Shown one piece after another: positions 10,674 through 59,516 of a DNA stretch of 64,000 bases. The stretch is from an uncultured Poribacteria bacterium. GTDB lineage: Bacteria > Poribacteria > WGA-4E > PCPOR2b. The position numbers and the translations under genes were made by a program. The notes under the pieces are model-generated. The model searched no databases. It saw only the letters and a list, made by a program, of their open reading frames with translations, and had not been told where the DNA came from. Numbering within the stretch: the stretch's first letter is position 1; each line of letters starts with the position of its first letter. The DNA lies in assembly GCA_958296125.1 (NCBI GenBank), contig OY282444.1, positions 1,289,176 to 1,353,175 on the forward strand. Reading direction: 5' to 3'.

Positions 10674-11417
10674 ATGAACACTCGCAGGTTTATTACCACG
10701 GCCATTCTGGCAATAGTGGTGTTAATCGGGATAAGTTCATTCGTTGTTTACGATATGAGGGCCCCTGTCAAAGAAGTAAGGGTCTATGAAGTCCCCGAAT
10801 CAAGGCAGGTGCAGCGTAAAGCGAATGTAATAGAGATAGCTGACAACCCAACCCTACCTCAAGATATTTCTACCCTTACGGCAGAAGAAAAGGCTGCTAA
10901 AATTGAACAGCTACGTGCTGAAATTGAACAGCTAGATGCTGAAACTGAACAACTACGTGCTGAAACTGAACAGCTACGTCAGGAAACAGCTGAAGCAAAT
11001 CGAAGGAGTGCTGCTGCCTTACAACGCATTGCGGAAGCAAAGCGTGTAGCTGCGAGCATAAAAGATGGAACCCATCCCCTGATTGTCGAAACTCGCGAAC
11101 TAGTGTATTGGATTGAAAATGATTTTACCCCCCGATTCGCTGCAGCGGCTGACGAGGCAGGGCATTTGGTAGTTCCCCACATGACGCGAGAGACTTTTGT
11201 TGAGATGTATCCTGACCCAGCGGACCAAGCATATTACATCCAAAAACTCCAAGAAATCGTAGGTCTCCATGAAGAACTTGCCACACGCATTGCCAATGCA
11301 TCGCCAGATGTCCGCGAGGCGAGTATTGAGGGATTTCGGCGGGTGTGGACTGTCGCCTTTGGAAAAGATGTAACGGACGATTTCCTCGCAGAGATTTCTC
11401 AACGGATAACCAACTAA
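10674..11417 (+). CDS. Hypothetical membrane-anchored protein with heptad coiled coil
   Basis: Strong RBS aaggagg; N-terminal hydrophobic helix; KIEQLRA-EIEQLDA-ETEQLRA-ETEQLRQ heptads. Confidence 0.75.
   Translation: MNTRRFITTAILAIVVLIGISSFVVYDMRAPVKEVRVYEVPESRQVQRKANVIEIADNPTLPQDISTLTAEEKAAKIEQLRAEIEQLDAETEQLRAETEQLRQETAEANRRSAAALQRIAEAKRVAASIKDGTHPLIVETRELVYWIENDFTPRFAAAADEAGHLVVPHMTRETFVEMYPDPADQAYYIQKLQEIVGLHEELATRIANASPDVREASIEGFRRVWTVAFGKDVTDDFLAEISQRITN
10897..10981 (+). repeat. 21-bp coding tandem repeat, about 4 units
   Basis: Units of the form aaattgaacagctacgtgctg. Confidence 0.85.
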
Positions 11418-36620: not shown

Positions 36621-37754
36621 ATGCTCAGAAGGATTTTGGAGTTCTTCAATCCATCGGAACACAAGAATCCATCGGAACGCAAGAATCCACCGGAACACGA
36701 GAATCCACCGGAACGCAAGCAACCTGTTGAAATGTTTCACGAACTGCTCAATGGATCGAGATGTGTATCGAGAAATGATTTTGCCGCTAATTTCGGTGGA
36801 ATTGCCAACGATGTTGTGAAGATGCTCACCAGCGATCAAGCAAAGCAGGCAATACAGGAAGCGCGTAAAACTATGGACAATGATCCGGTCGATTCCCGGT
36901 TGCGTAAGGTGAAGTTTGGTTTATTCAGTGATGCGAAAGAATTAGAGAGGGGAGAAGTCGCCGCTATAGACGGAACCTTCGCCCTTCCAATGCAGAAGTA
37001 TTCAGCAGGGCAGGCGATCTGCATTGGCATTGGTAGTCTCTCACATTGTCGACTAATGCAAGATTCGTCACACTATTGGTCAAGCAAGGCTTTTCTTTCT
37101 GATGCAGCCGATACAGATGATTTCATTGCACGCGAAAAACGAGGGCTTTTCGGCATATATCCAACAGCGTATTTGCGATACTATGAGATTAAGCACTGTC
37201 TTAAAATTAAGGAGCCATACCTGTTCTTAGATGGTCCCTTGATCGATGAGTCCCTCATATCAACTCAAGAAGGGGTGCAACTGTATAACAAACTATTTGG
37301 AAAGAAAAACAAGCAAGTTCTGGGGATTATCAAAAATATAGCGAATCCTGCATTTACCAAATTTGCTCGCGCCCTTAAATCCGGTGAAATTTATGTGATT
37401 GAAACTTTAGCAGACCACTTAAATCAGAGCAACGTAGCCCGTAGCCGCCCTGTATCGGCTGAGTTTAAGAATGGCATCGCCTGCGATGTGTTCAGGGGTG
37501 TCTTTAAGCCCGGAAAAAAAACATTCGGTTTCGAGGTACACAGGGATCACCTAGAGGATATGCTACGCATCATGGCCGCTGATTGTCAAATGAACAAACC
37601 CGGACACGAAATCCCATTTTTACTCAATCGAATTGATGAAGAAGTTCGCAAAAATTTCAGTCAACACATCTTAAGAGATCGAATCGCTACTGAGATGGCG
37701 ATTCAGAGTGAGGAGTTGTTTTTTGAGGAGACGGATGAGCGTTTTTTCCGTTAG
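36621..37754 (+). CDS. NurA-like nuclease
   Basis: AAIDGT and LFLDGPL acidic motifs, C-terminal IPFLLNRIDEEV; starts 10 nt after the HerA stop. Confidence 0.7.
   Translation: MLRRILEFFNPSEHKNPSERKNPPEHENPPERKQPVEMFHELLNGSRCVSRNDFAANFGGIANDVVKMLTSDQAKQAIQEARKTMDNDPVDSRLRKVKFGLFSDAKELERGEVAAIDGTFALPMQKYSAGQAICIGIGSLSHCRLMQDSSHYWSSKAFLSDAADTDDFIAREKRGLFGIYPTAYLRYYEIKHCLKIKEPYLFLDGPLIDESLISTQEGVQLYNKLFGKKNKQVLGIIKNIANPAFTKFARALKSGEIYVIETLADHLNQSNVARSRPVSAEFKNGIACDVFRGVFKPGKKTFGFEVHRDHLEDMLRIMAADCQMNKPGHEIPFLLNRIDEEVRKNFSQHILRDRIATEMAIQSEELFFEETDERFFR
36648..36719 (+). repeat. 18-bp coding repeat x4
   Basis: aatcca(t/c)cggaac(a/g)c(a/g)ag encoding NPSEHK NPSERK NPPEHE NPPERK. Confidence 0.9.
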
Positions 37755-47306: not shown

Positions 47307-48458
47307 TCAGCCCTCACGTAGATGTTGAGGGCGTGTCAGCTCCGCTGTCAGTGCTTCAATAGAGTGGCTCAGTACTAGGTCCTCCTTGAGTAGTGTTTCA
47401 ATTCGTTGACAGCTTCGCACGACTGTTGTTCGACTCTGTCCAAACCCTTGATAAATCTCTTTCAACGAGAGGGTGGTTAACTGACGCGCAAGATACATTC
47501 CGACTTGTCGAGGGAGTACAAACCGTCTTTCGCGCTTTCGAGAACATAGGTCTGATACGGTGAGGTGGAAATACCTAGCAACGGTTTCCTGAATAATTTC
47601 CAGCGTGATTGTGTCGGATGGAGGTCGATCCGGGCTTCTACCCTCTAACGCGTGATGAGCAGTCTGTAGGGTCAAGGGTGAGCCCAAACGCGCCTCTGCC
47701 ATTAATCGGTTTAAAGCACCTTCAAGCTGACGAACGTGCTGCGTCAGATGTTTTGCTAAATAACGTAGCATTTTCAAGGGCACGGGTCCAGATTCCCGTT
47801 CTTTTAACTTCTGCTTCAGGATTGAAAGCCGCAAATCAAACTCAGGCGCACAAATTTCAACGATGTGCCCCTGCGTGGGTTCATTGGACGAGTCCCAAAA
47901 CTCCTTCAGAAACTGCGGTAAACGATCGCAGGTGCATACGAGCCGTTGGCTTCGTTCACTCAAGCAGTTAAGTAAGTGGAAAAACTCCTCCTGAATCCTT
48001 TGCTCCGGCGATAAAAAGTGAATGTCGTCAATCAGCAACAGATTGACATCCTTATACTGTTGCCGCAGTGCGGCAGCTTTCCGAGGGTCAGCAATGGATC
48101 GAAGCCATTCACGCATGAATTTCTCTGCTGAGGAACAGTACACCGTGCGATTCAGGTGCCCCTGACGAAATTGGTTTCCAATTGCATGCAACAGATGGGT
48201 TTTCCCTAGCCCAACGTCTCCATGTATAATTAATGCCCGCTCTACCCTTCCAACCCCATTTGTCAAGCTTTGCGCTGCTTCACACGCCTCTTGATTGCTT
48301 TCCCCAACGACAAACCGATCAAAAGTTAATGCTGGATTCAATCCTGAATTGGCAGGTATGCGTGGTGCTGAAGTTGGCATATAAGTCAGCAATTCGGCTG
48401 ACTGTGATACCGGAGGCTGGGAAGGGCGATCATCGCTGCCGCCATTCGAGTGATTCAT
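47307..48458 (-). CDS. DnaA-like protein (AAA+ domain III and DNA-binding domain IV, lacking domain I)
   Basis: TFDRFVVGESN, GDVGLGKTHLL, LLIDDIHF, VRQLEGAL, LPRQVGMYLAR..T..SLKEI. Confidence 0.85.
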   Translation of the reverse strand: MNHSNGGSDDRPSQPPVSQSAELLTYMPTSAPRIPANSGLNPALTFDRFVVGESNQEACEAAQSLTNGVGRVERALIIHGDVGLGKTHLLHAIGNQFRQGHLNRTVYCSSAEKFMREWLRSIADPRKAAALRQQYKDVNLLLIDDIHFLSPEQRIQEEFFHLLNCLSERSQRLVCTCDRLPQFLKEFWDSSNEPTQGHIVEICAPEFDLRLSILKQKLKERESGPVPLKMLRYLAKHLTQHVRQLEGALNRLMAEARLGSPLTLQTAHHALEGRSPDRPPSDTITLEIIQETVARYFHLTVSDLCSRKRERRFVLPRQVGMYLARQLTTLSLKEIYQGFGQSRTTVVRSCQRIETLLKEDLVLSHSIEALTAELTRPQHLREG

Positions 48459-48535
48459 TGCTATTGTCCTATGATTCGCGATTAAATATTTCTGCTAATA
48501 CTCAATCCACATCCACACGTTGCAAAGATGCCTAG

Positions 48536-48557: not shown

Positions 48558-48912
48558 TTTCTCTGTCATTAGCAACATCATAATTGAAGCTTTGTGTGGG
48601 GGCTCATCATCCTCTGCCACAATATAGGCTGGGAAGACAATTTGGGTAGCACAATAGTCTATTAAAAAATCAAAACGAGATCAAGCCTTTTTTTCGAGGG
48701 CTCATAGGGGAATTGCCCCTGTAAATGTTAGCAGAGCGCAGATGATGGCACAGATTACCATCACAATCGTATCCATCAGTTTATGACAGGTACGACTGTC
48801 ATTGCGTCGGGGAGCTGTCAAGTCGGAAAAATGTACTTAGATTGAGGCGATTGGTACTTTCGCCATTTAATCTGCTCCTTATGGGTTTGGATAGCTTAAT
48901 ACATTACCTCAA

Positions 48913-48952
48913 GTGACATATTCCCAAGCCTAAATGCTTGGGAGTATGTCAC
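48913..48952. other. 17-bp inverted repeat hairpin at the left edge of the phage-like remnant
   Basis: GTGACATATTCCCAAGC-ctaaat-GCTTGGGAGTATGTCAC, one G.U pair. Confidence 0.8.
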
Positions 48953-49480
48953 CGTTACGGTAAGCAGCATTTTAATCAATGGATCGGGATTAGCCTTGAT
49001 GAAGTGACACGGATGAAAAAGTCTAATTTGAAGTCGGTCAGTTTTTATTATCCGCTTGTCGAGAAACGGTGGACGCGGAACGACTGCGTTCAGTATCTTC
49101 ATAAACACGGCATTCCTATCCCCAATAAGAGTGCCTGTGTCGGGTGTCCGCTTCATTCTAATGTCACGTGGCTAAGCCTGACGGATGCTGAGAAACAGGA
49201 TGCGATCGATTTTGATGAGGCTATTCGAGATAGCCAATTACATATAGATAATACGCCCAAGGCTAAAAAGGCTGTCAAGGGACAACTGAACCTGCTGGAT
49301 ATGGAGGAGGTGGATGCAACAACGAAACAGAGAACTCCTCGACAAGGAGGCACGCAACTATTTATCCATTATTCGGGCAGACCGTTTCGAGACGTACTAT
49401 CAGATATAGGCGATTCACAACAACAACCAGAACTCTTTAATAGAAAAGATGAAGAGTGCGCTGGAGTGTGTTTTATCTAA
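48938..49480 (+). pseudogene. 5'-truncated phage-type PAPS-reductase-like (adenine nucleotide alpha hydrolase) gene
   Basis: QWIGISLDE..RM, YPLVE..WTRNDC, KSACVGCP, C-terminal CAGVCFI; N-terminal PP-loop half and RBS absent. Confidence 0.7.
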
Positions 49481-49538
49481 ACCTAAAAGAGAAACCTTGA
49501 GGAAAGACTCAAGCGTACCGAATTTCTTATTTAATCAA

Positions 49539-49609
49539 TCGAAACGCTCCCGCAGGGGAGCGTCGGGGCAACCTAAGCGTCGGGAGCCCCCTGATGAGAA
49601 CCCCGACGC
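49539..49609 (+). ncRNA. Type II hammerhead ribozyme with pseudoknot; predicted cleavage after C49564
   Basis: UC-GAAA-C 49539-45; stem III GCUCCC/GGGAGC; GUC 49562-64; stem I GGGGC/GCCCC; CUGAUGA 49591-97; 2-bp stem II; 8-bp pseudoknot GCGUCGGG 49577-84 with CCCGACGC 49602-09. Confidence 0.92.
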
Positions 49610-49636
49610 ACAACCTTAACCATAAGGAGATTTATA

Positions 49637-50323
49637 ATGTTACGCTTTGTTTTGGCAATTACAGTTTTTCTCACCCTTCAGCTATCACTGCTTTCATTTT
49701 CAGATGAAGATAACCAAAAGCCAAAGATTCGAGCAGCCATACCGCTTATTGCATATACAGAAGATGGACGAAAGGTTCTATTAAAAAGCGATGGAACTTG
49801 GGAATGGGCAATTGACGCTCCCGCTCCCCCATCATCTAAACCTATCTATCCCAAACAAACAGTGGCTAAAATCATATCTTCAGGTGTTCTTGTAACAACC
49901 CCACATCTACAAGATGTGAGCATAAGCCTCGGGCAGAATATAGTCGAATTAGAACAATTATATGGCGCAGCTGCCCCTAGTCGCTACGACGAAGAAACAG
50001 GATTAACCTTTCCTGGTAATCGTGGTAATGCCCGATTCGGCGGCCTTGAGATCAGTTTGGATAATGACCACAAAGTAGAAACTATTATGATTTACGATTC
50101 AAAGTATAAAACGAATAAAGGAGTTGGAGTTGGCAGTCTCCATCATAAAGTTCGTATCGCTTATGGCATCCCGACAGACATCGGTAGCGGTGGCACGGAC
50201 GCAAGGCTTGAGCACTACAAAGCAGGTGAAGCAGGTGAAATTACGCTAACTTTTGGGTATACAAAGGGTAAGGTTATACTCATTGCGCTATCAGCCATCC
50301 CAATCCCCAACTCAAACCAATAG
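49637..50323 (+). CDS. Secreted hypothetical protein with DUF3157-like motif
   Basis: RBS aaggag; signal peptide; AYTEDGRKVLLKSDGTWEW motif; C-terminal TNKGVGVGS...AYG. Confidence 0.8.
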   Translation: MLRFVLAITVFLTLQLSLLSFSDEDNQKPKIRAAIPLIAYTEDGRKVLLKSDGTWEWAIDAPAPPSSKPIYPKQTVAKIISSGVLVTTPHLQDVSISLGQNIVELEQLYGAAAPSRYDEETGLTFPGNRGNARFGGLEISLDNDHKVETIMIYDSKYKTNKGVGVGSLHHKVRIAYGIPTDIGSGGTDARLEHYKAGEAGEITLTFGYTKGKVILIALSAIPIPNSNQ

Positions 50324-50361
50324 ATAACAACATCGGGGGCGACTTCCCTCGTCCCCGACTG

Positions 50362-50426
50362 TAATGCAGCCCCCGCTGTCATGTAGACAGTCGGTGACGG
50401 TCCCAAGTCCGGAGCGATGCAGAGGG
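50362..50426 (+). ncRNA. Twister ribozyme (P1-type topology); predicted cleavage U50362/A50363
   Basis: UAA; P2 UGCA 50365-68/50418-21; T2 GC/GU; P3 hairpin 50373-94; A then P4 CGG/CCG; L4 UCCCAAGU; GA-GGG giving T1 with CCC; P1 stem not evident. Confidence 0.78.
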
Positions 50427-50469
50427 ATAACAAGGAGGTTAGACACGGAATACAACACACAAGGATATT

Positions 50470-50577
50470 ATGAACGTCATGGATAGAACCATCATTGTGA
50501 ATGCGCCTTGCGGGGATTGCGGCGGCGACTTGTATTCAGGCTATAGCACAGTAAAGAAGCCAGCCCCCATCAATTAA
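50470..50577 (+). pseudogene. 35-aa ORF with a single CxxC, probably a truncated Zn-ribbon gene
   Basis: MNVMDRTIIVNAPCGDCGGDLYSGYSTVKKPAPIN after aaggat. Confidence 0.35.
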
Positions 50578-50592
50578 ACCTGTTAATAAATC

Positions 50593-54902: not shown

Positions 54903-55008
54903 CGCGCCAGAAAATTAACTGACGCTTTAGATCGCGGCTTTGCCGAATGCGAAACGTAACGAGGCACAATCGACTTTAACGGTAATTAGGAAATGGAGAG
55001 GTAGCAAC

Positions 55009-56370
55009 ATGGCAAGCACTTCGGATCAGCCTAATGTAATCGTGTTTTTCACAGACCAGCAACGGTGGGACACAACAGGCGTACACGGCAATCCGCTGGA
55101 TTTGACACCGAATTTTGATCGGATGGCACGACAAGGAACGCACGTCTACCACTCGTTCACATGCCAGCCTGTTTGTGGTCCTGCGCGGTCCTGCTTGCAG
55201 ACCGGGCTTTACGCCACTGAAACGGGTTGTTACCGAAACGGTATCCCATTGTCGTCAAATCTGAAGACGCTTGCCCACCATTTTCGTGAAAGTGGCTACA
55301 GAACCGGCTACATCGGCAAGTGGCATCTTTACGATAGGGGTGATGAGGGAGCTGTCCCTGAGTCCGCGCGTGGGGGTTATGAATATTGGCTTGCCTCCAA
55401 TGTGCTTGAATTTACCTCCGATGCCTATCACACTGTTCTCTACAATAATGACAACCAACCTGTCAAACTCCCCGGCTATCGTGTGGATGCCGTTACCGAT
55501 GCCATGATTCGCTACATTGACGCTCACCAAGGCAATCCATTTTACCTTTTCACCTCGTATATTGAGCCGCACCACCAGAATCACCTTGATGATTATCCGC
55601 CGCCCGATGGCTACCGTGAACGTTACGCGGGGCGATGGATTCCGCCAGATCTCGCTGCGTTGGGTGGCTCAACGCATCAGCACATCGCCGGCTATTACGG
55701 CATGGTCAAACGCCTTGATGAAGCACTTGGCAGGGTGTTGGATGCCCTCAAGAGTCTTAACCTGCTCGATAACACGATTCTGCTCTTTACATCGGATCAC
55801 GGTTGTCACTTCAAGACCCGAAATGCGGAATACAAACGCTCCTGCCACGAAAGTTCCATCCGTGTTCCCACTGCACTGCACGGGCCCGGTTTCGATGGTG
55901 GCGGGCAGCTTCAACAACTAGTCAGTCTCGTTGACCTACCGCCAACCCTTCTCGATGCTGCCGGGATTCCTGTGCCCGAAGAGATGCAAGGGCGTTCAAT
56001 GCTTCCACTGACAAGAGGTGAAACGGATGGGTGGCCCGAGGAGGTTTTCGTTCAGGTAAGCGAGTCACAGGTGGGACGCGCGGTCCGCACCCACCGATGG
56101 AAATACGGTGTTGCTGCGCCGGGGGGACGCGGCGCGCAGGGTGCAGCATCAGAGCGGTATGCCGAGGAGTCTTTCTATGATCTACAGGCAGATCCATACG
56201 AGTTGACAAATCTCATCGGCCGAGAGTCGCATCAGGAGGTTGCTGCGGTGATGCGGGATCGTCTTATCCGACGCATGATTGAAGCAGGTGAAGCGGCACC
56301 GACCATCGAACCTGCGCCGACACAACCGAGTGGGCAGCGGCGGGTTTCTCCTGAGGAGGCACGTGCCTAA
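55009..56370 (+). CDS. Sulfatase (S1, formylglycine-dependent)
   Basis: FFTDQQR, CGPARSCLQTG (CxPxR), GKWH, FTSDHG. Confidence 0.93.
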   Translation: MASTSDQPNVIVFFTDQQRWDTTGVHGNPLDLTPNFDRMARQGTHVYHSFTCQPVCGPARSCLQTGLYATETGCYRNGIPLSSNLKTLAHHFRESGYRTGYIGKWHLYDRGDEGAVPESARGGYEYWLASNVLEFTSDAYHTVLYNNDNQPVKLPGYRVDAVTDAMIRYIDAHQGNPFYLFTSYIEPHHQNHLDDYPPPDGYRERYAGRWIPPDLAALGGSTHQHIAGYYGMVKRLDEALGRVLDALKSLNLLDNTILLFTSDHGCHFKTRNAEYKRSCHESSIRVPTALHGPGFDGGGQLQQLVSLVDLPPTLLDAAGIPVPEEMQGRSMLPLTRGETDGWPEEVFVQVSESQVGRAVRTHRWKYGVAAPGGRGAQGAASERYAEESFYDLQADPYELTNLIGRESHQEVAAVMRDRLIRRMIEAGEAAPTIEPAPTQPSGQRRVSPEEARA

Positions 56371-56402
56371 ACCTGAGTTGGAATGAATTAAGCGAGCAGC
56401 CC

Positions 56403-57845
56403 CTAAATCCTTGCTAAGTTTGCGTAAACTTTTCGTCCTTCGTTGAACAAGTGTAGGACTTCTTCCCGCTGAGTATCCTTTGTAAACCGCCAATCCCGGT
56501 TCACTATCTCCATCGCACTGTCAATTGAGCGAACAAAGAACGCTGCTGATGCCTGTGCGATGTCAGCAGGGATGCCCGTGCCGATATAGACAGGGCTTGT
56601 GTGTGCATAGATCGGTTGTGCAAAGCTGTCACGGGCTTCCCCAAAAGCGCGTGCCGCGATCCAACCGTCAGATTCGATTCGGAGGTCAAACGCCCACTCC
56701 CCACCCTGTCTCACTCCGTCGAGGGGCACTGTTTGTGTGACTACCCCGTTGTAAACCAATTCGACACGGTCGAGCGGATAGTGCGACTGCCACGCGATTT
56801 GCCCTGATACCTTACGAGGATGTCCATCCGGCGATTTGATGGTGCTGCCGGGTGTTTTCCCATCAAGGTTCAGGAACAGTGCCGGTCCGTTCGTGATAAA
56901 TGTACATCCCGCCTGCAAGCCTCTCAACCAGTTTTCATAGGTAAATTCGCCATCAGTCTGGACATAAACACGATTGTTCGCGCAGATGAACCAATCTGTC
57001 CCTGTGGATGCAGGCAGCGGGATACCGCAGTTGAGCAGGTGATACCAGAGGTCGTATTCAAGGTCTTTCCAGCCGGGATCGAACAGGTTAAAGGCATCCA
57101 ATTTCCCTAATGCAGCCGCCACCGGTGCTTCCATCCCGCTACCGTTGTGGCACCACAGCACGATGCCTCCCTGTCGTTTCGCATCGTCACAGGCATAACA
57201 GATCGGCGGATAGTCGGGGTCAAAGCTACTGACGAGATCGCCACGACTGACAGGCTTAACCAGATTCTCAATGTGCAAGAACATGACGTGCCCGGACCCA
57301 CCACCGTAATGGGAGTTATGGCGGTTCTCCTCGCCGCAATCGACGAGGTGATGCGCGGTCGAATAATCGGTCATGAACCCGAGCGGATACTTATTGCTGG
57401 CATAGGGCAGTTCACCCCGCTGAAGGATGCTGATGACGGTCACGCTGAGGTCGTGGACTTTTGGATCGAGCCGCAACCGATCATCAGGCTGAGCCTCCTG
57501 CTCATTGTAGTGCAGATGTGTATTCCCCGGATACCAACCTTGCGACGGTAGGTCTGCCCACCGTTTGAGATCCAACTCGACCTCAACCGCCCCTTTTGCA
57601 GGCATCGAAACGACCTTCCGAAGGGGTTCATACTCCGTGCCGCGCTCAACTACGATGTCCGTTGAACCGCGGGGCACATCCACAGTAAACTCGCCCGGAC
57701 AGTAGAAAAACGGGTCGCCCGGTCCAATCTTCAGGATGCTATCGGTCGGGTGGACAAACTGCCCGCTACTGGTCAGGACATGGACTTTCGCCTCGACGCA
57801 GGCACCTGAAACGCTGTCTCGAATAACGCCTTTAAGTGTTGCCAT
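56403..57845 (-). CDS. CehA/McbA family PHP-like metallohydrolase
   Basis: WYPGNTHLH, GEE, WCHN, ASTGTD, FITNGP, AHTSPVY. Confidence 0.85.
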   Translation of the reverse strand: MATLKGVIRDSVSGACVEAKVHVLTSSGQFVHPTDSILKIGPGDPFFYCPGEFTVDVPRGSTDIVVERGTEYEPLRKVVSMPAKGAVEVELDLKRWADLPSQGWYPGNTHLHYNEQEAQPDDRLRLDPKVHDLSVTVISILQRGELPYASNKYPLGFMTDYSTAHHLVDCGEENRHNSHYGGGSGHVMFLHIENLVKPVSRGDLVSSFDPDYPPICYACDDAKRQGGIVLWCHNGSGMEAPVAAALGKLDAFNLFDPGWKDLEYDLWYHLLNCGIPLPASTGTDWFICANNRVYVQTDGEFTYENWLRGLQAGCTFITNGPALFLNLDGKTPGSTIKSPDGHPRKVSGQIAWQSHYPLDRVELVYNGVVTQTVPLDGVRQGGEWAFDLRIESDGWIAARAFGEARDSFAQPIYAHTSPVYIGTGIPADIAQASAAFFVRSIDSAMEIVNRDWRFTKDTQREEVLHLFNEGRKVYANLARI

Positions 57846-57859
57846 GGAGTTGCTCCTCT

Positions 57860-59326
57860 TTACACATCGTCACGTAGGGCATCGGCGGGCCCCCACGGCG
57901 CAAATGCTACTGTTGCATACGGGTTGAAGATGATGTCGTCTTCGCGTCCTGCGAACCGCCACATCCGACGCACTAGATCGCGCTTCACCTCCTGATAATC
58001 GGCATGGTCGCTGAGGTTCACCATCTCGTGCGGGTCGTTCCGCAAATCATATACCTCGTCGAAGTCAAAACCGTTGTAGACGTATTTGAACGCTTTGGTG
58101 GTCACGACGCGCTGGCTATAATACAACTCGACACCGTTGAACTGTGTGTAGAATGTGTCCGTCCAATCGGAGGGGGTTTCGTCTTTCAGGAATGGCACGA
58201 GGCTCCGCCCCGTTAGGTTCTCCGGGGGTGGTTCGCCCGCCAACTCGATGAAGGTCGGTGCAAAATCGGCGAGGCTCACAAATTCGTCAACTTCGCGGTT
58301 GGAATTGGCAATCCCTTGGGGCCAGCGGGCAATCGTGGGGATGTGATAAGCCTCACGGAATGCCGGCACCCCTTTGAGGTACAATCCGTGTGCGCCGCAG
58401 TAATCGCCGTGGTCGCTCATTCGTAAAACAAGGGTGTTCTCCGCCTGCCCTGTTTCCTCCAATGTCTCAAGCACCTCACCGAACATCGCGTCCTCCATTG
58501 TGCAGTATCCCCAATAGTGCTGGATGGACTCGCGCACCTCGTCCTCCGAAAGTTGTCCCCAATACTGTTGACGCGCACGCTGATACGCGCGAGGCTTGTC
58601 TTCAAGTGTGTCGTGGAAGTTCGGCGGCAAGGGAATCTCTTTGGGGTCATACATCCGGGCGAATCGCTCTGGCACGATGAACGGGTCGTGGGGCCCACTC
58701 GGTCCGATGTATAGACACCACGGCGCATCCGCTTGGGATAATCGCTGCAACGCATCCAATCCAGACTGCACAACACGATAATCTCGGTGGTCTTCATAGC
58801 CTTTCGGTGTGTCGGTCGGGTAGGATTGATACAGTTGATAGTGCCCCCAGCCGGGGCGGAGGATTTGCCCACGCTGGCGTTCCGTTGATTCGGGTTGTTT
58901 GGCTTGTTCCTGCCACTGTGCAACAGAACGGTGCATGTAGCTGCCTTTGCCCGCTGTGATGTGCAAATCTTCCCAGCCCCGGTCGGATGGATTCTCGGCA
59001 TCGGTGACATGCCATTTCCCGGCATACGCCAAGTTATAGCCCGAAGATCGGAGGACCTCACTGAACATCCCGACACCTTCGTAGAGAGCGTGGTGGATGG
59101 CGGTCGGATTGCTGACGTTGTTGTAGATGCCGTGCCGACTGGGATACAAACCTGTCATGAACGTTGCCCGTGAGGGGCAGCAGTGCGCCGTTGGACAAAA
59201 TGAACGGCGAAAGAGAACTCCCTCCTGCGCTAATCTCGTAGCGTTAGGTGTGATACATGGATGGTCTGGATGCACCACATCGGCTTGCTCTTGGTCGGTC
59301 ATAAAAATAAGAATGTTGGGTCTCAT
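57860..59326 (-). CDS. Sulfatase (S1, formylglycine-dependent)
   Basis: PNILIFMTDQ, CCPSRATFMTG, GKWH, GPHDPF, SDHGD; start at ATG 59326 with RBS. Confidence 0.93.
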   Translation of the reverse strand: MRPNILIFMTDQEQADVVHPDHPCITPNATRLAQEGVLFRRSFCPTAHCCPSRATFMTGLYPSRHGIYNNVSNPTAIHHALYEGVGMFSEVLRSSGYNLAYAGKWHVTDAENPSDRGWEDLHITAGKGSYMHRSVAQWQEQAKQPESTERQRGQILRPGWGHYQLYQSYPTDTPKGYEDHRDYRVVQSGLDALQRLSQADAPWCLYIGPSGPHDPFIVPERFARMYDPKEIPLPPNFHDTLEDKPRAYQRARQQYWGQLSEDEVRESIQHYWGYCTMEDAMFGEVLETLEETGQAENTLVLRMSDHGDYCGAHGLYLKGVPAFREAYHIPTIARWPQGIANSNREVDEFVSLADFAPTFIELAGEPPPENLTGRSLVPFLKDETPSDWTDTFYTQFNGVELYYSQRVVTTKAFKYVYNGFDFDEVYDLRNDPHEMVNLSDHADYQEVKRDLVRRMWRFAGREDDIIFNPYATVAFAPWGPADALRDDV

Positions 59327-59516
59327 GTGCCCCTCCCGTGCCAAGCTTGTCTCAACGGTCAAGTAGTTAAGTGGATTTGCATTTCTTTCAACGATTTCCC
59401 CGCTTGATCCCTTCCGCAACTAGCAATATCTAATTAGGTTATCATAAGTCGAAAGTTAGGTTATGATAGTCGGACTATGTCAAGCTTTTAGTCCGTTAAT
59501 CAACCCTCAATACCCG

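Follow-up and report, generated by a model that had tools for sequence, protein, structure and literature searches.

The segment at positions 49539-49609 (+) of the window, which is the whole 64,000-nt stretch of DNA analysed here, is supported as a type II hammerhead ribozyme by all criteria of sequence and structure, complete with a pseudoknot between loop I and the 3′ tail. The reading that is favoured here, with a probability of roughly 0.7, is that this segment is a catalytically competent, phage-derived hammerhead that would process the transcript of the gene that follows it, ORF228. The window belongs to the chromosome of a sponge symbiont, a Candidatus Poribacteria bacterium, and lies on a contig of 5.16 Mb. 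The hammerhead, ORF228 and a P0 hairpin with a candidate twister ribozyme appear to form a cassette, carried on ~1.64 kb of a fragmentary phage operon that would have come to lie at a chromosomal rearrangement junction.

Sequence and structure of the hammerhead candidate

Read directly, the segment is UC-GAAA-CGCUCCC-GCAG-GGGAGCG-UC/GGGGC-AACCUAAGCGUCGGGA-GCCCC-CUGAUGA-GA-AC-CCCGACGC, where the slash marks the predicted cleavage site (Table 1). All residues of the catalytic core that define the Rfam family Hammerhead_II (RF02276) are in place, namely C3 U4 G5 A6 N7 G8 A9 in the CUGAUGA motif, G12 A13 A14 in the GAAA motif, the A15.1-U16.1 pair (A49544-U49563), and a residue other than G at H17 (C49564). 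The three helices meet in the arrangement of the family, with loops closing stems I and III, an open stem II, and the G10.1-C11.1 pair present; stem II is restricted to 2 bp because the following pair would be A-A. The tertiary contact between GCGUCGGG in loop I and the tail sequence CCCGACGC is 8 bp long; such a pseudoknot, of at least 4 bp, is typical of type II hammerheads though not universal among them. Damage was found in none of the 23 base pairs and none of the 13 core nucleotides. An earlier note on this DNA had reported a complete core (CUGAUGA, GAAA and GUC), perfect stems I and III, a 2-bp stem II and an 8-bp pseudoknot composed of loop I and the 3′ tail, and all of these features were recovered at the positions in Table 1. 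What that description missed was that the segment scores below the Rfam gathering threshold, that it sits on a truncated phage fragment, and that a twister candidate lies across ORF228 from it.

The nested minimum-free-energy fold retains stem III and the pseudoknot helix, and the individual helices have energies of -16.1 (stem III), -8.9 (stem I), and -15.3 kcal/mol (pseudoknot helix). An alternative fold in which the tail pairs with 49560-68 (-17.5 kcal/mol) is uncompetitive and would break stem III, stem I and the pseudoknot.

Table 1. Coordinates of the insert, its genes and its candidate ribozymes in the window
Feature	Position	Strand	Description or basis
Insert, ~1.64 kb, carrying the ribozyme cassette	48922-50565		Synteny; borders approximate, within ~10-25 nt
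Hairpin	48913-48952	+	17-bp stem (16/17 complementary), 6-nt loop; inverted repeat at left border of insert
Phage-type PAPS reductase, C-terminal fragment	48938-49480	+	PHROG 424, E 5e-15
Type II hammerhead ribozyme candidate	49539-49609	+	Core, helices, covariance models, shuffles
Hammerhead core GAAA	49541-44	+	Sequence
Hammerhead core CUGAUGA	49591-97	+	Sequence
Hammerhead GUC	49562-64	+	C17 = C49564; predicted cleavage directly 3′
Hammerhead stem III	49544-51 with 49556-63		8 perfect pairs including A15.1-U16.1; loop GCAG
Hammerhead stem I	49565-69 with 49586-90		5 perfect pairs
Hammerhead loop I	49570-85		16 nt
Hammerhead stem II	U49539-A49599 and C49540-G49598		2 bp, open
Loop-I/3′-tail pseudoknot	49577-84 (GCGUCGGG) with 49602-09 (CCCGACGC)		8 Watson-Crick pairs
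Shine-Dalgarno AAGGAG	49624-49629	+	Sequence; 7 nt before ATG 49637
ORF228	49637-50323	+	228 aa; signal-peptide-like N-terminus; sole complete gene of insert
10-bp GC-rich hairpin, optional P0 of twister	50333-50358	+	Ends 4 nt before predicted twister cut
Twister-P1 ribozyme candidate	50358-50430	+	RF03160; predicted cut between U50362 and A50363
AAGGAGG	50433-50439	+	Directly 3′ of twister; no start codon at working distance
35-codon ORF	50470-50577	+	Enters ancestral flank; probably not a gene

Position of the hammerhead relative to ORF228

The candidate is found in phage DNA, in an intergenic position on the coding strand and directly before a gene, which is the usual context of RF02276 hammerheads. 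The pseudoknot is separated from the ATG of ORF228 by 27 nt (49610-36), the distance given for it previously, and the Shine-Dalgarno sequence falls on the predicted 3′ cleavage product, so that the ribosome binding site would be left intact downstream of a cut after C49564, as had been proposed. Of 178 unique related hammerheads, 150 have the start of an ORF of at least 40 codons 10-45 nt past CUGAUGAGA (median 26 nt), against 35% of random positions with an ORF start in that range, and the corresponding distance at 49539-49609 is 37 nt. Placement just before a ribosome binding site and start codon is thus the norm for the class.

ORF228 itself has few relatives. A 90%-cluster search returned the protein alone, nine distant and unannotated homologs were found (best E 1e-23), the only Pfam match (DUF3157) is weak and sub-threshold, and no relatives were found in species genomes. 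At L214, the one retrievable locus that encodes a homolog, there is no ribozyme. The single-sequence AlphaFold model of the protein is unusable (pLDDT 35.7). Promoter-like sites were no better than chance, and a search for terminators gave none on the + strand. The hammerhead tail and the ribosome binding site are each touched by perfect 10-nt inverted repeats; the two repeats are near the chance expectation for 2.1 kb, and are not nested.

A twister candidate downstream of ORF228

A candidate twister-P1 ribozyme begins 35 nt past the ORF228 stop codon. With 36.9 bits to RF03160 (E 2.2e-4 for the whole window) against a gathering threshold of 67.2 bits, it is the best Rfam match of the window, and the top two matches are this candidate and the hammerhead, which lie 750 nt apart on the same strand. 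The candidate resembles the RF03160 twisters of phages in its intact UAA, P2 (UGCA/UGCA), GCC, 8-bp P3, P4, T1 (CCC with GGG) and GAGGG elements, in its P0 hairpin and in the ribosome binding site-like sequence downstream, and differs from them in P1 and in T2; its score is also far below the gathering threshold. Pairing is complete in P2 (4/4) and T1 (3/3), nearly so in P4 (3/4), and absent from P1 (0/4). At least three of four P1 pairs form in 38 of 46 phage twisters, and P1 is dispensable for twister cleavage in vitro (PMC5408937). The L4 sequence GUCCCAAGUC is present, and T2 is composed of a C-G and a G-U pair, the latter because of a C-to-U change in L4 at 50408. This variant was found in 0 viral contigs, compared with 79 that have C, and the equivalent C31U change is tolerated in the Osa-1-4 twister (PMC5113685). 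A hairpin of at least 5 bp occupies the P0 position in 40 of the 46 phage twisters. In phages an ORF starts at a median of 18 nt after P1, and the AAGGAGG that directly follows the Poribacteria candidate looks like the ribosome binding site of a lost downstream gene.

Twister and hammerhead ribozymes have gene neighbourhoods in common (PMC6765202, PMC5408937). Of 79 phage loci chosen for a twister alone, 16 also carry type II hammerheads, and in the six of these 16 that were compared the hammerheads are always on the strand of the twister. The phage contig L279 has the order hammerhead, ORF, GC hairpin with twister, ribosome binding site and ORF, GC hairpin with twister, ribosome binding site and ORF; the hammerhead-ORF-hairpin-twister order of the insert is the same. 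At 11149-11213 (-) of L279 a 58-bit phage hammerhead reads CUGAUGU for CUGAUGA, and looks like an A9-to-U variant of the core.

The insert and its phage origin

The cassette lies in a region where the gene order of related genomes is interrupted on both sides. To the left, synteny with 11 Poribacteria loci ends at ~48694, past a DnaA-like gene, and those genomes continue with era. To the right, synteny with 22 Poribacteria loci resumes at ~50565-50592 with an MFS transporter gene and its promoter-like TTGCAT/TATAAT. The two syntenic blocks are far apart in other Poribacteria genomes. In one relative alone, L230, a homolog of 48739-48921 directly adjoins the MFS promoter region. Because synteny breaks on both sides and the blocks lie apart elsewhere, 48922-50565 is read as an insert that only this genome carries, at the junction of a rearrangement. 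The insert is missing from 33 related Poribacteria loci, and no hammerhead was found in 34 related loci (366 kb). The hairpin at its left border, which may be a recombination site, a terminator or the end of an element, extends into the initial codons of the PAPS-reductase fragment, and homology with L230 stops at the start of this hairpin. No convincing direct repeats or att sites were found at the borders.

The PAPS-reductase fragment corresponds to positions 257-352 of the 460-position profile, with ~250 N-terminal residues missing, and is 26-42% identical to phage PAPS reductases (tblastn). It has no Pfam match and no close relatives in viral contigs, and the insert has no DNA similarity to GenBank phages. 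To judge from this fragment and from the absence of the insert from the 33 Poribacteria loci, the insert is of phage origin. The fragment of the operon has been cut at both ends, and only the middle gene and its two flanking ribozymes are whole. A recurrent link between PAPS reductases and hammerheads was considered and rejected, as a homolog is encoded by just 2 of 281 ribozyme-bearing loci.

Several observations were made at the periphery of the insert. An 18-nt direct repeat (16/18 identical) joins 49826-49843, within ORF228, and 50564-50581, at the right junction; it may be microhomology or chance, with ~0.04 such repeats expected by estimate. The DnaA-like protein on the left flank (383 aa, 47307-48458, -) is without the N-terminal domain, covers positions 93-437 of TIGR00362 with 321.8 bits against a cutoff of 343.9, and is 77-86% identical in the 11 Poribacteria, whose genomes have era upstream. 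ATCCACA repeats that resemble DnaA boxes occur at ~48500-48520, and the GC skew has no turn there. Two sulfatase genes and a phosphodiesterase-family gene are found downstream at 54940-59419; sulfatases are typical of Poribacteria. A weak match to the whalefall-1 RNA is present at 37666-37715 (+), with 24 bits against a gathering threshold of 37 and E 0.071 for the whole window.

The truncation of the fragment bears on whether the ribozyme is at work in its present host. A true hammerhead homolog that arrived with phage DNA could be a relic that is untranscribed, or whose cleavage is inconsequential, and that owes its intact appearance to a recent insertion. Only part of the PAPS-reductase gene is present, the gene that would have followed the twister appears to have been lost with its AAGGAGG left as an orphan, the twister combines an unpaired P1 with an L4 change unseen in phage contigs, no promoter rises above chance, and the insert is found in this genome alone. 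Moreover, the reading frame of the truncated PAPS reductase remains open for 180 codons, suggesting that there has been little time for decay. With a cassette cut at both ends, two atypical features in the twister and a ribosome binding site without a gene, the insert may be a recent fossil. This reading is possible but rather unlikely: ORF228 is complete, with a good ribosome binding site and distant homologs, the hammerhead is undamaged in every pair and core nucleotide, and neither oddity of the twister need be disabling, given what is tolerated in Osa-1-4 and dispensable in vitro.

Proposed processing of the ORF228 transcript

On the preferred reading, that of a competent hammerhead, a + strand transcript of the cassette would form all three stems, of which stem II has just 2 bp, together with the 8-bp pseudoknot of loop I and the tail, and would cleave itself after C49564. 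The upstream RNA would then close with the stem III hairpin and bear a 2′,3′-cyclic phosphate end, and the 5′ end of the ORF228 mRNA would be G49565 with a 5′-OH. The leader of this mRNA would comprise 45 nt of structured RNA (stem I and pseudoknot), a free AAGGAG 14 nt further on, and then the ATG. Cleavage by the twister after U50362, if it takes place, would yield a 798-nt monocistronic mRNA that has the 10-bp hairpin as a 3′ stem-loop and ends 4 nt past it. The effect would be to give ORF228 an mRNA with defined, structured and protected ends, uncoupled from transcription up- and downstream. A role of this kind, in which ribozymes set the ends of mRNAs in phage operons, has been proposed but not proven. 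We infer transcription, cleavage and any effects on stability or translation in this host; in public runs the locus is contained only in four assemblies of metagenome DNA, of low depth (2-5x) and from one sample.

Two ribozymes that bracket one ORF on one strand could also release an RNA that is subsequently closed. RtcB ligates 5′-OH and 2′,3′-cyclic-phosphate ends, and the 798-nt RNA from G49565 to U50362 would have ends that suit such a ligase, by which it might be circularised into a translatable molecule. The products of hammerhead cleavage do have this end chemistry (PMC8782182). The ribozymes are of different classes, however, and there is nothing to bring the two ends together; the stop codon of ORF228 is normal, and the many-ribozyme arrays of phages are a better fit to the processing of linear mRNA, all of which makes circularisation highly improbable. 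Were it true, a secreted protein of a sponge symbiont would be encoded by an mRNA that is circular and stable, and bacteria would have a counterpart to the circular RNAs that derive from ribozymes.

Significance of the motif and comparison with covariance models

A type II hammerhead descriptor, applied to both strands of the 64-kb window, has its sole match at 49539-49609. In 400 dinucleotide-preserving shuffles of the window, loose motifs are expected at 0.04 per window and moderately strict ones (stems of at least 4 bp) at 0.005, and no motif of the observed stringency was seen. In composition-matched shuffles, loop I and the tail are joined by at least eight Watson-Crick pairs with P about 1e-4.

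The segment aligns end to end with RF02276 at 29.2 bits, with E 4e-4 for the local 351 nt; when all 4227 families are scanned against the whole window, E is 0.078. The gathering threshold of the family is 37 bits, and a default Rfam scan is silent on the segment because its score falls below this value. A cmscan against Hammerhead_II, the check that the earlier note had suggested, thus gave a full-length match but not a score above threshold. The low score is not disqualifying, because 11 of 34 hammerhead matches in the same-strand arrays of seven phage contigs are likewise below the threshold, at 30.5-36.8 bits. In the RF02276 alignment (window 49537-49607) the pairs of stem II seem to be one position off the C11.1-G10.1 register; U49539 is matched to G49598 and A49538 is set against A49599, so that the hammerhead loses some score.

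A second covariance model, R1, was built from 46 type II hammerheads of phages and metagenomes, with 49539-49609 itself left out. The segment scores 41.9 bits (E 2e-8) and is the sole match to R1 within the window, a result that is partly circular because the pattern used to gather the training set had been derived from the hammerhead under study, from its core and the base of its stem III. It ranks about 145th of 162 matches in the viral loci and the window. In an alignment of the class that was fitted to the model, 98.9% of cells are paired, whereas shuffles reach 65.9%, and compensatory changes are seen at 13 of the 15 pairs. The Poribacteria segment forms 14 of these 15 pairs, the sixth pair of stem I being an A-A mismatch (49570/49585). 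The type II identity that had been claimed for the segment is supported by its full-length alignment to RF02276 and to R1. That the segment is instead a cluster of GC-rich hairpins, from a terminator or repeat element, which fortuitously holds GAAA and CUGAUGA is scarcely credible, for although the Rfam score is sub-threshold with an unimpressive whole-window E-value, and GCGUCGGG(G) is present three times nearby, the shuffles, the pseudoknot and the R1 E-value all speak against it, the locus has no U-tract and no + strand terminator call, and the twister candidate 750 nt away supplies a known partner context.

Relation to known hammerheads and other ribozymes

Type II hammerheads with a pseudoknot of loop I and the 3′ tail were described by Perreault et al. 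(2011), and pseudoknot-dependent members with a 1-2-bp stem II flank prophage genes (PMC3088659). The earlier statement that such a pseudoknot stabilises bacterial and phage type II hammerheads in which stem II is very short agrees with that work. The Poribacteria hammerhead shares with the RF02276 ribozymes of that study the core, the capped stems I and III, the open 2-bp stem II and the pseudoknot, as well as its setting in phage-derived DNA, in a short intergenic gap with a ribosome binding site and start codon next. It differs from them in its sub-gathering score and in a geometry at the edge of the class, with a pseudoknot of 8 bp (usually 5-6, class mode 5), a 16-nt loop I and a 5-bp stem I. 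Altered spacings of the pseudoknot, loop I and stem I can cut activity by orders of magnitude (PMC3088659). Its host lineage, Poribacteria, also sets it apart from the species genomes that match the pattern of the subclass.

The same core with a U-A/C-G stem II was found in 78 contigs of viruses and in at least 120 of metagenomes. Among 185,579 species genomes it is present in just 10, and no Poribacteria are included in these. With a looser pattern for stem III, four genomes were matched, and two of these matches lie in what we take, from ORFs recognised by eye, to be Mu-like prophages. Across the class, 226 of 229 hammerhead matches are well formed, with a pseudoknot mode of 5 bp, and loop I pairs better with its own tail than with permuted tails. 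There is no close ortholog of the Poribacteria segment among these sequences, as even the best matches in global alignment have no more than the core and stem III in common with it. Viral contigs L088, L059 and L017 carry same-strand arrays of 8-9 type II hammerheads that are 0.3-1 kb apart, at about one per small gene. In comparison to such arrays, the Poribacteria hammerhead is a single copy on a truncated fragment.

Chromosomal type II hammerheads are known in Desulfovibrio vulgaris, where three of them cleave in vivo as observed by cyPhyRNA-seq (PMC8782182). Both the D. vulgaris trio and the Poribacteria hammerhead are beside hypothetical or phage-like genes, and their fragments are similar, with a 5′ piece of ~30 nt and a 3′ piece of ~40 nt. 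Cleavage has been observed in D. vulgaris, whereas that of the Poribacteria element is predicted from sequence. A synthetic parallel is the insulator RiboJ, a hammerhead that cleaves in the 5′ UTR, so that upstream RNA is removed and a fixed, structured leader is left before the ribosome binding site. RiboJ is an engineered derivative of a satellite-RNA hammerhead that has a loop-loop contact, and it carries an added hairpin; the Poribacteria element would work alike, but is of the natural type II pseudoknot form. The glmS ribozyme is likewise a self-cleaving class of bacterial 5′ UTRs whose 3′ product has a 5′-OH (PMC6765202). Unlike glmS, which needs a metabolite cofactor and lowers expression, the Poribacteria element has no hint of a ligand pocket or of regulation.

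Implications

As one more example of a class that is known from thousands of sequences, and in a standard arrangement, the hammerhead is of small direct value. Both ribozyme candidates score below the Rfam gathering thresholds and would therefore be missed by routine annotation, as would about a third of the evident hammerheads in phage arrays. Isolated from its phage on a chromosome, the cassette is a clean, natural test case for the role of such ribozymes toward the gene that they flank, for which mRNA insulation, end protection and stability are the candidates. The cassette also marks a horizontally acquired fragment and a rearrangement junction in an uncultured lineage of sponge symbionts.
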